A DNA stretch of 64,000 bases from a phage: the sequence record PZ386969.1; one strand, given 5' to 3'. A program made the position numbers and the translations under genes. Shown here in pieces: positions 13,445 through 15,701 of this stretch; positions within the stretch are counted from its first letter, which is position 1; each line of letters starts with the position of its first letter. The notes under the pieces are model-generated. The model worked only from the letters and a program-made list of their open reading frames with translations, was not told the origin of the DNA and did no database searches.

Positions 13445-13470
13445 AAGGAGGCCGGAGCCTCCTTTCTTTT
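13445..13470 (+). terminator. Rho-independent terminator
   Basis: Stem AAGGAGGC/GCCTCCTT loop CGGA followed by TCTTTTG. Confidence 0.6.
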
Positions 13471-13479
13471 GAGGTCGAT

Positions 13480-13785
13480 ATGTTAACCAACGACGTCTAC
13501 TTCAAATATGCAAGGCAGACATACGGCTCGCACCGCGTGACAGACAAGTTCCTGATTGACTCCTTCCAGTTTGAAGGGGAGATGAGGGAATACTCACACA
13601 AACAATTCCCACCCCGTGAAGTGCATGGTGACCAGTTCGTGAAATTGTTCTGTCGCTGTGGTGGATGTGATTTCACGGATGATGGTTACGCAATGCACGT
13701 GTACTGCTGTAATTGCTGTGGTAAATACGTAACAGTCTATAGGAGAACCGAACATGGCCAAGAAACCAGAAGTCAAGAAAGTTGA
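13480..13785 (+). CDS. Cys-rich hypothetical protein
   Basis: ORF with CxxC-type clusters (CRCGGC, CCNCCG); 3' end overlaps next gene by 32 nt. Confidence 0.35.
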   Translation: MLTNDVYFKYARQTYGSHRVTDKFLIDSFQFEGEMREYSHKQFPPREVHGDQFVKLFCRCGGCDFTDDGYAMHVYCCNCCGKYVTVYRRTEHGQETRSQES

Positions 13786-14179
13786 AATTAAAACCGAAGC
13801 CCCAGTCGATGACATCCAGGCGAAGGAGGAAGGTGTGTTGCCTACCTACCTACAACGCGCCATCGATAACATCCCTCCAGGGGGAGACGGAGGCGTCGTC
13901 TACGCTGGCGGGTACGGTTGGGTGTGCGAATACCAAGACGGCACGAAGGAACTCCTCCAGGAGCTTCCAGGGCTGGCTGCGACCCTCAAGCGTTATGGTC
14001 GCGACAAGTTCGGCAAGCCGTTTGAAACCGGGGCTGTGATTGAAACCAACATCACAGTCGAGACTCTGAACCTGCTGGGTGAAGATGATCTCAAGTTGTT
14101 GGCTGCGCCGCTGGGTATCACAGAAGAAGATCGCATTCAGCTGATTGCGAAGCTGATCGAAAAATTGCAGATTAAATAA
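13754..14179 (+). CDS. Hypothetical protein
   Basis: ATG preceded by TAGGAG. Confidence 0.45.
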   Translation: MAKKPEVKKVEIKTEAPVDDIQAKEEGVLPTYLQRAIDNIPPGGDGGVVYAGGYGWVCEYQDGTKELLQELPGLAATLKRYGRDKFGKPFETGAVIETNITVETLNLLGEDDLKLLAAPLGITEEDRIQLIAKLIEKLQIK

Positions 14180-14209
14180 GCCGGTGTACAACAGCTGAAC
14201 TTATTCAAT

Positions 14210-14602
14210 ATGCCTATCGTTGACGAAAGCAACTTGATGGATTATGCACTGAGGCATTATATTGTAGATTCTGTCTCGTGGGATGAACTGCTGGTAGACA
14301 TTCAGCGGATTTCGCTAATTAATCAATCATTGAAGAGATTTGTCCCTGGTAAGAGTCCTCGGTTGATTCTCAATCAATTGATTACTGTCTTCAATACGTT
14401 CGAAACAGAGGCTGCTTGTCGCATGCTCGTTTTGAAGGTGGATAAGCCCCAGTTGCCACGCCTCAAGGCTGCTTTGTTGACATTAGGCGTATGGCGCGAT
14501 GATTTATGTTCCGGTTCATACGAACCAGATAATGAGCTGATGATGGCTCTGAACAACGATTTGGATGAGTGGAGGAAACCATGCCAACGATCACTGTATT
14601 AG
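14210..14602 (+). CDS. Hypothetical protein
   Basis: ORF; 3' end overlaps next gene. Confidence 0.4.
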   Translation: MPIVDESNLMDYALRHYIVDSVSWDELLVDIQRISLINQSLKRFVPGKSPRLILNQLITVFNTFETEAACRMLVLKVDKPQLPRLKAALLTLGVWRDDLCSGSYEPDNELMMALNNDLDEWRKPCQRSLY

Positions 14603-15390
14603 TAGCACCGGAAGTTGTTCGCAACAAACCGGAAACTGAGCGTCTTCACACTGTAACAGGTACTGCTCGTGGTTGGGAAAAGACCAGTCTTAACCAAGAC
14701 CCAGACGAGATCCTGACTGAGTGTAAAGGTCTGGATGCACTGCTGACCAAGAGCAATTTGCAGGCCGATGGCGTCACCAAAGTGGATCCAACCAAGCCCG
14801 TTGGCTTCCAGCTGTCTTATGAAATCCACGACCCAAGCGCTGTGCTGACCACTGGCCTGACCATCACCCCTGAAACTGCTAATGGTGAAGTCGGTCAGGT
14901 TGTTGAACTGAAGGCGGTCGTCGCTCCGGAGAACGCGACCTACCAGGGTGTCAACTGGTACTCTGGCGATCTGACCAAAGCTGTGCACATCGGTGGTGGT
15001 AAATTCAAGCTGCTGGCACCGGGTTCAGTGACTGTTTACGGTGTAACCATCGAAGGTGACCACACCGACTCTACCGTCATCACAGTGGCTGGCGCTCTGT
15101 CTCTGTCTACCGATCTGGCCGCTTCTCAGGATGTAACAACAGGTGAATCCGCAACCTTCACCATCGCTGCTACAGGCGGCACTACCCCATACACACATAC
15201 TTGGTACTTCTCTGATGTCCCTGGTGGTGAAGGTGAGGTGATCGATGCTGGCACTAACCCCACTGCTGCAACTGCGAGCCTGGTTATCACTACAGTTGCT
15301 GCCGAAAACGAGGGTGAGTACTGGTGTGTTGTTGAAGACGCTGACGGCCACTCTGTGACCTCTACTCGTTGCGAAATGGCTGCGGTCTAA
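14581..15390 (+). CDS. Ig-like domain protein (Big_2-like plus I-set-like)
   Basis: ATG 14581 preceded by GGAGGA; Big_2-like segment and Ig I-set-like segment (EGEYWCVV). Confidence 0.55.
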   Translation: MPTITVLVAPEVVRNKPETERLHTVTGTARGWEKTSLNQDPDEILTECKGLDALLTKSNLQADGVTKVDPTKPVGFQLSYEIHDPSAVLTTGLTITPETANGEVGQVVELKAVVAPENATYQGVNWYSGDLTKAVHIGGGKFKLLAPGSVTVYGVTIEGDHTDSTVITVAGALSLSTDLAASQDVTTGESATFTIAATGGTTPYTHTWYFSDVPGGEGEVIDAGTNPTAATASLVITTVAAENEGEYWCVVEDADGHSVTSTRCEMAAV

Positions 15391-15392
15391 TC

Positions 15393-15626
15393 ATGAAAGG
15401 CTTCCAGGACTTCCTTGAAGACTCAGCAGCCCCTGGAACCACGACCGCCGATGTGGGGAAACCCGAAGGCGGTATGGTGAAAGAGCCTGTCAAGAAGCCC
15501 AAGGATCTTGAGGAAGAACAAGAGCAGACCTCCTTCCAAAAGATCTTTGGAAACATCTTCAAAGACCTCGACCTGAAGAATGCGCGAAAGTGGAACTTCA
15601 GGACAGGCAAATATGAAGAGGAATGA
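15393..15626 (+). CDS. Hypothetical protein
   Basis: ATG 15393 in frame with track ORF 15369. Confidence 0.35.
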   Translation: MKGFQDFLEDSAAPGTTTADVGKPEGGMVKEPVKKPKDLEEEQEQTSFQKIFGNIFKDLDLKNARKWNFRTGKYEEE

Positions 15627-15657
15627 GCCATGAACGCGATGATCATGGGTTAACAAA

Positions 15658-15677
15658 AGAGGCTCCGGCCTCTTTTT
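15658..15677 (+). terminator. Rho-independent terminator
   Basis: Stem AGAGGC/GCCTCT loop TCCG followed by TTTT. Confidence 0.6.
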
Positions 15678-15695
15678 CATTTCCAGCATTTGGTG

Positions 15696-15701
15696 TATAA
15701 T
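15696..15701 (+). promoter_or_regulatory. Sigma70-type -10 element
   Basis: Exact TATAAT directly after the terminator; possible -35 TTTTCA 16 nt upstream. Confidence 0.35.

Follow-up and report, generated by a model that had tools for sequence, protein, structure and literature searches.

What is the role of a protein with immunoglobulin (Ig)-like domains whose gene lies between rIIA/rIIB and the genes for a histone-like protein and topoisomerase II? This gene was found in the window analyzed here, the whole 64,000-nucleotide stretch of phage DNA in sequence record PZ386969.1. The initial annotation had pointed to capsid decoration proteins such as Hoc or to adhesins as possible counterparts of the product, and presented its position among small early-type genes, far from the structural blocks, as unexpected. 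The explanation that best joins our results, to which we assign a probability of roughly 0.6, is that the gene encodes a late-expressed accessory protein of the virion surface, which would carry an N-terminal anchor and displayed Ig domains and sit on the capsid similar to pb10 of phage T5. The features on which this explanation is built are listed in Table 1.

Table 1. Positions of the Ig-protein gene, its domains, its neighbors and the associated transcription signals in the window.
Feature	Position	Strand	Description or basis
Terminator after rIIB, upstream boundary of the unit	13445-13464	+	Intrinsic; terminator scan, fold
Small Cys-rich ORF	13480-13785		101 aa; CRCGGC...CCNCCGKY; phrog_3805; putative late promoter inside its 3' end
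Putative late promoter TGCTGTGGTAAATA	13714-13727	+	TAAATA core 13722-13727; conservation; 27 nt before ATG 13754
DUF7440 protein, first gene of the unit	13754-14179	+	141 aa; Pfam PF24224, E = 2e-46; phrog_3795
DUF7207 protein	14210-14602	+	130 aa; Pfam PF23837, E = 2e-26; phrog_407
Ribosome-binding site GGAGG	14571-14575	+	Sequence
Ig-like protein ORF	14581-15390	+	269 aa, from ATG
N-terminal module, putative virion anchor	14581-14838	+	Residues 1-86; conservation, low omega, always N-terminal
Big_2 Ig-like domain	14839-15096	+	Residues 87-172; Pfam PF02368, AlphaFold2, PDB 7quz match
I-set/Ig_3-type Ig domain, exchangeable distal module	15097-15390	+	Residues 173-269 and stop; Pfam
Small ORF, last gene of the unit	15393-15626	+	77 aa; phrog_4805; conserved synteny
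Terminator, downstream boundary of the unit	15655-15676	+	Intrinsic; 9-bp GC-rich stem and U-run
Early-type promoter motif, opens next unit (histone-like gene)	15676-15701	+	Motif count
TAAATA sites near gene starts	13722, 27778, 27800(-), 48854, 48873(-), 52632(-), 54967, 57450(-)
Early-type motif sites	305, 7710, 15676, 24833, 33641(-), 37173(-), 52121(-), 53965(-), 62258(-)

The Gene and Its Family

In addition to the ATG given in Table 1, the ORF list shows a possible GTG start at 14569 on the + strand in the same ORF, which ends at 15390. The GGAGG sequence upstream of the ATG and the N-terminal peptide identified by mass spectrometry (MS) for the orthologue of phage EspM4VN establish the ATG as the true start. 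That peptide, PTITVLVAPEVVR, covers residues 2–14 of the orthologue and excludes the GTG. The DUF7207 ORF overlaps the start of the Ig gene by 22 nt, suggesting translational coupling.

The gene is a member of a conserved and already known family of the Ackermannviridae (ViI-like phages), the "Ig-like virion protein" or orf006 family (PHROG 215). It has been recognized, and given names, in papers and sequence databases from about 2010–2012 onward. Members include ORF006 of LIMEstone1, gene 56 of EspM4VN, Vi01_006, and orf006 of CBA120. A note in the GenBank record of phiMAM1 makes the connection to Serratia phage KSP90 and its "Ig-like virion protein." In the main text of the papers on phiD3 and phiPD10.3, the protein is unmentioned. 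The window is from an Ackermannviridae phage. The region that contains the gene is 97–98% identical to those of the Escherichia Ackermannviridae phages RPN242, YX22, ZQ1, and AV101, and 85–89% identical to those of Agtrevirus and Limestonevirus phages. The protein is identical to QVW27078.1 of phage vB_EcoM-ZQ1 in GenBank, which is labeled "tail fiber protein," and shares a 90%-identity cluster with the EspM4VN protein. Over residues 1–269 it matches phrog_215, "structural protein with Ig domain" (E = 6.8e-73), a PHROG placed in the category head and packaging.

When the first 88 residues were used as a tblastn query, the N-terminal module was found once per record in 283 phage records, with identities ranging from 48 to 100%. 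All 283 records are Ackermannviridae of ~150–165 kb, including Kuttervirus, Agtrevirus, Limestonevirus, Taipeivirus, phiMAM1, and Bue1. The orthologue is commonly located at a coordinate of ~5.5 kb and named "orf006," and the gene order around it is constant: rIIA, rIIB, small ORFs (DUF7440/DUF7207), the Ig gene, a small ORF, and the genes for the histone-like protein and topoisomerase II. The identities between ORF6 of LIMEstone1 and the window protein are 93, 90, and 84% in the three domains. For the two orthologues confirmed by MS together, the identities range from 84 to 94% per domain and are ~89–90% overall. The window protein shares its length (269 amino acid residues), three-part architecture and synteny with the orf006 family, from which it does not differ in any point of substance. 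It has little discovery value in itself, being a virion protein that is conserved and already described in a family of phages that has been sampled extensively, with its gene most likely in an ordinary late unit.

Detection of Orthologues in Virions

Two orthologues have been detected in purified virions. ORF6 of LIMEstone1 was found in purified virions with 4 peptides and a coverage of 21.9%, and labeled "Hoc" in Table 2 of that study (PMC3296691). The GenBank record of LIMEstone1 also gives ORF006 as "confirmed structural protein." In EspM4VN, the product of gene 56 had the highest score in Coomassie-stained band 9, with 4 peptides (PMC7283392, Table S3) covering residues 2–14, 35–49, and 50–67 (PMC7283392). 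Given that the peptide of residues 2–14 was recovered from virions, the N-terminus of the EspM4VN orthologue is kept and not cut off in maturation. The modest MS coverage is explained by the tryptic map of the protein, in which residues 144–263 form one 120-residue peptide and residues 68–111 one 44-residue peptide, leaving only ~35% of the protein in detectable peptides. The coverage reported for LIMEstone1 is roughly 60% of this trypsin-accessible maximum.

These detections might also be read as carry-over of a non-structural early protein, for example an adhesin that is secreted or placed on the cell surface, or a factor acting inside the cell. In favor of this reading, the gene lies between the rII and replication genes, and MS of LIMEstone1 virions also caught a few non-structural proteins (PMC3296691). 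The latter, however, were each covered by <5%, against 21.9% for ORF6. Moreover, carry-over would have to account for detection in two independent virion proteomes, for the top match in a Coomassie-stained band, and for the late-promoter element and terminators that delimit the unit of the gene (see below). We therefore consider a non-structural protein very improbable. Through its orthologues in these two proteomes, the window protein is assigned as a virion protein, and the absence from virions that the initial annotation had named, together with an Ig fold unsupported by profile search, as speaking against its reading is contradicted by the same orthologues; the Ig fold is supported by profiles as well (see below).

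A Probable Late Transcription Unit between Early Units

The Ig gene is part of a five-gene stretch, from 13480 to 15626, between two intrinsic terminators. The downstream terminator has a predicted fold of -17.2 kcal/mol (z = -3.9). In Menlow, terminators are annotated at both of the matching places, and in LIMEstone1 at the upstream one. Within the stretch, the element TGCTGTGGTAAATA is invariant in five genera, its wobble positions included, across the window, LIMEstone1, Vi01, Menlow, and EspM4VN, and the annotation of LIMEstone1 gives a late -10 at the equivalent site. At the aligned site of phiMAM1 and Bue1, which are without the first small, Cys-rich ORF of the stretch, a perfect T4 late promoter, TATAAATA, is found, with the unit's first gene starting ~30 nt downstream. 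The window's own element is GGTAAATA and not the full TATAAATA. When the window was scanned, neither the T4 late motif TATAAATA nor the published CTAAATAcCcc was found near the Ig gene. A second TAAATA at 14173, 32 nt before the ORF that starts at 14210, was not conserved in LIMEstone1 and was not relied on. In the window, the Cys-rich ORF occupies the interval from the rIIB terminator to the putative late promoter, with no space for a promoter of its own.

The total of TAAATA in the window is at the level of chance (14 vs. 14.75 expected), and the core is informative solely via its position and its conservation across genera. Eight of the 14 sites are located 27–39 nt upstream of a gene start, compared to 0.33 for random placement, and in 2000 random trials the count always stayed below 8; the observed count rises to nine of 14 if the gp54-like gene with a GTG start is included. 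Baseplate and head genes are among those marked in this way, whose products are the gp48-like baseplate cap, gp4, gp2, the gp54-like tube initiator, the gp5 hub/lysozyme, and a RuvC-like resolvase. The remaining marked starts belong to the unit of the Ig gene and to one gene without assigned function. The placement of TAAATA suggests that it is the core of the late promoter in these phages, whose late promoter was described in the CBA120 paper as not yet identified. A TAAATA core ~27–39 nt before a start codon could be used for annotating late promoters in these phages.

The early-type motif TTCAAT-N14-TATAAT, with one mismatch allowed, occurs 9 times in the window vs. 0.29 times expected, and the same motif search of the window found none before the Ig gene. 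The nine motifs mark the starts of early units.

The Ackermannviridae encode homologues of gp55, gp33, and gp45 (PMC3184105), and the structural genes of LIMEstone1 are scattered across its genome (PMC3296691). Given these observations, the two terminators and the conserved TAAATA element, the Ig gene is most likely in a small late unit (13754–15626) embedded between early units, with late expression predicted from the sequence signals. The nearest recognized morphogenesis genes (gp4 and gp48-like), at 27.2–28.8 kb, are ~12 kb away, so the gene does lie apart from the structural blocks as the initial annotation stated; the description of its surroundings as early-type, however, fails for the gene's own unit. 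With a terminator-bounded unit, a conserved element of the T4 late type and scattered structural genes, a structural gene among early genes is no longer puzzling, and the implied paradox of position dissolves.

Ig Domains and Comparison with Hoc

The Big_2-like and I-set-like segments recognized in the initial annotation both scored above the curated cutoffs of Pfam. Big_2 (PF02368) matched residues 91–158 with 24.4 bits (gathering cutoff 22.8). At residues 182–258, Ig_3 (PF13927) and I-set (PF07679) scored 38.6 bits (cutoff 30) and 30.2 bits (cutoff 23.7), respectively. With V-set (29.4 bits; cutoff 26) and ig (26.5 bits; cutoff 21.8), four Ig models jointly span residues 182–261. The Ig fold expected from these segments was also borne out by structure prediction, as two AlphaFold2 runs gave two beta-sandwich domains with pLDDT values of ~90, and Foldseek matched the model to tandem-Ig structures such as Big_2-CBM56, titin, and Dscam. 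In the PDB sequence search, the Big_2 domain matched the Big_2 domain of 7quz (E = 1e-9). The best match of the C-terminal Ig domain was gp17 of phage N4 (9E99; E = 5e-10), and the domain was also similar to the Ig domain of T5 pb10 (E = 5e-7 and 1e-6). Outside the orf006 family, the best structural match of the two domains together was the "decorating protein" of the T5-like phage Gostya9, with TM values of 0.45–0.49, in Foldseek searches against PDB and BFVD whose matches were mostly generic Ig ones that do not distinguish head from tail. According to Pfam and PHROG, the protein consists of Ig domains and a family-specific N-terminus only. No fiber or spike domain, i.e., trimeric shaft, beta-helix, receptor-binding tip or baseplate adaptor, was found in it with Pfam, PHROG, and Foldseek.

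Similar to T4 Hoc, the protein is an accessory virion protein with Ig-like domains and a presumed role in surface adherence. The label used for LIMEstone1, as well as the weaker Hoc-like PHROG matches over the C-terminal Ig domain, would suggest a true orthologue of Hoc. Yet in BLASTP the similarity to T4 Hoc was limited to Ig regions (E = 0.13), and hhalign gave a probability of 0.06% for the N-terminal profile against Hoc. Moreover, the domain polarity is reversed: the Ig domains of Hoc are N-terminal and its anchor, the capsid-binding domain, is C-terminal. Hoc itself occupies the center of each capsid hexamer in one copy. Homology to Hoc was rejected given this polarity and the lack of sequence similarity beyond generic Ig, and true orthology, already contradicted by these results, is scarcely credible. 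The comparison with T4 Hoc thus failed, and of the decoration-protein reading of the initial annotation, a virion protein with displayed Ig domains is supported through the orthologues found in virions, whereas kinship with Hoc is not.

Similar to gp17 of N4 (279 amino acid residues), the protein is a free-standing multi-Ig protein, of comparable size and with a similar C-terminal Ig domain. Different from it, gp17 consists of three Ig domains that lie flat against the capsid surface, with DI and DII making the contacts, while the conserved part of the window protein is the non-Ig N-terminal module.

The N-Terminal Module as a Putative Anchor

Among the 17–22 family members that were aligned, the identities to the window protein were 49–94% for residues 1–86, 26–92% for the Big_2 domain, and 13–87% for the C-terminal module. 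Omega was 0.03–0.09 at the N-terminus, ~0.14 for Big_2, and 0.14–0.25 for the C-terminal Ig domain, consistent with purifying selection that acts everywhere and to an unequal extent. Positive selection was not found on the Ig domains, for which omega was at most 0.25. A deep phmmer search with the N-terminal module retrieved the orf006 family only, with the module invariably at the extreme N-terminus. Three other phmmer matches to the N-terminus, one of them with SpaA repeats, were repeat-driven false positives. A G-rich database protein of 120 amino acid residues that aligned with the module was also discarded; many of its residues were changed to G, R or E, and the sequence is likely to be an artefact or to have mutated heavily.

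Across the architectures of the family, the N-terminal module is followed by one to three Ig modules. For instance, relatives of 339–342 amino acid residues, including that of Salmonella phage CRW-SP2, have two Big_2 repeats in place of the I-set domain. The homolog of phiMAM1 consists of the N-terminal module and two Big_2 domains, and that of Bue1 of the N-terminal module and one Big_2 domain. For the alternative Big_2 repeats, identities of up to 76% were found with Big_2 modules of Enterococcus, Stenotrophomonas, and jumbo phages, and in these unrelated phages the modules belong to capsid-decoration proteins as well as to major-tail proteins. The identities of Big_2 across unrelated phages thus indicate that the Ig modules are promiscuous, exchanged cassettes that are uninformative about location on the particle.

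The steep conservation of the N-terminus, its low omega and its fixed place, together with the promiscuity of the Ig modules, suggest that residues 1–86 may anchor the protein to the virion and that the Ig domains may be the modules on display. Residues 13–49 had low AlphaFold2 confidence though they are conserved; strands 3–8 and 76–81 and helix 51–57 reached pLDDT values of 60–73 when AlphaFold2 was given a more diverse alignment. The low confidence would fit a segment that may become ordered only upon binding of a partner, and a shallow alignment is another possible cause. The N-terminal profile had only insignificant matches in PDB (eS4, E = 0.78; lactate dehydrogenase, E = 1.5).

Location on the Particle

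The closest functional parallel may be pb10 of T5 (PDB 5LXK/5LXL and 8ZVI), in which an N-terminal domain of 73 residues binds the capsid and a C-terminal Ig-like domain is exposed to solvent. Similar to pb10, a non-Ig module precedes the Ig part, and from its conservation this module is the putative anchor. Different from pb10, which has one Ig domain, the window protein has two, and its N-terminal module has no detectable similarity to pN, the matches of the PDB search being confined to the Ig part.

The Ig accessory protein could also be mounted on the tail, neck or baseplate, for instance on the sheath, the collar or the tailspike complex. Many orthologues are annotated as tail fiber or tail proteins, major tail and tail-tube proteins often carry Big_2 domains, and the MS data specify the virion only. 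The matches of the Ig modules are split between head and tail proteins (PHROG, BFVD, tblastn): those of the Ig parts in PHROG include many tail families, and tail proteins are also among the BFVD and tblastn matches. However, the "tail fibre" label originated with Vi01_006, the note of which mentions only "some similarity to bacterial Ig-like domain," and no tail-fiber, tailspike-adaptor or baseplate domain was found in the protein. A small anchor with Ig domains in a free-standing protein of ~27 kDa is instead the format of the head decorations pb10, gp17, and Hoc. PHROG 215 is also classified under head and packaging, and the name chosen by the LIMEstone1 authors was that of a capsid protein, Hoc. 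Although literature searches found neither a cryo-EM structure of an Ackermannviridae capsid nor an explicit decoration protein, the free-standing format, the visible stained gel band and the PHROG 215 classification lead us to favor the capsid over the tail with some confidence, and to regard a tail, neck or baseplate location as rather unlikely. As the label "tail fiber protein" of QVW27078.1 and many orthologues is unsupported, "Ig-like virion protein" would be a better name.

According to the capsid reading, the protein would be expressed from a T4-type late promoter, the core of which is at 13722, as part of the five-gene stretch between the two terminators. The N-terminal module of ~86 residues would dock it on the particle and would probably be fully ordered only once bound. 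The Big_2 and I-set domains would project outward as exchangeable display modules and, by analogy with what has been suggested for T4 Hoc and for Ig domains in other phage proteins, might adhere weakly to carbohydrate or other surface ligands. The protein on the capsid would be a functional counterpart of T5 pb10 rather than of T4 Hoc. Should residues 1–86 prove to be an anchor that works on its own, a display tag for biocontrol Ackermannviridae could be made from them, in the way that pb10 is used for T5.

A Module Probably Shared with the DUF7440 Protein

The one small new observation of this study is an N-terminal module that is probably common to the Ig protein and the DUF7440 protein. Residues 11–64 of the Ig protein (14611–14772) appear to share a module of ~50 residues with the DUF7440 protein, whose gene lies two genes upstream. 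The DUF7440 family is found in Ackermannviridae only, where its members always stand alone. The DUF7440 profile (PF24224) matched the Ig protein, at residues 11–61, with 20.9–23.3 bits, below the cutoff of 25, at profile positions 3–52 of 110, and the match had the same register in several divergent family members. In hhalign, the N-terminal profile of the Ig family matched DUF7440 with a probability of 88% (E = 3e-6, 52 columns). Moreover, BLASTP of the Ig N-terminus against the phiMAM1 neighbor gave E = 1e-5 and 44% identity over 43 residues. From these profile and sequence matches, the putative anchor and the DUF7440 neighbor probably share an old module of ~50 residues, rather than the Ig protein being a full member of DUF7440.

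A further, speculative step, which we consider doubtful, is that the anchor and DUF7440 are ancient paralogues that have the module (GW...E-hL-x-E-x-x-GL) in common and bind one site on the particle, with the DUF7440 protein as a second, Ig-less occupant of that site or as an assembly factor that hands it over. If so, the phages would possess a lineage-specific docking module that is unrelated to the anchors of Hoc, Soc, and pb10 and usable for display on ViI-like phages. As for the other neighbor upstream of the Ig gene, the DUF7207 ORF is described in a note on Vi01 as similar to Gp189 of cyanophage Syn9.
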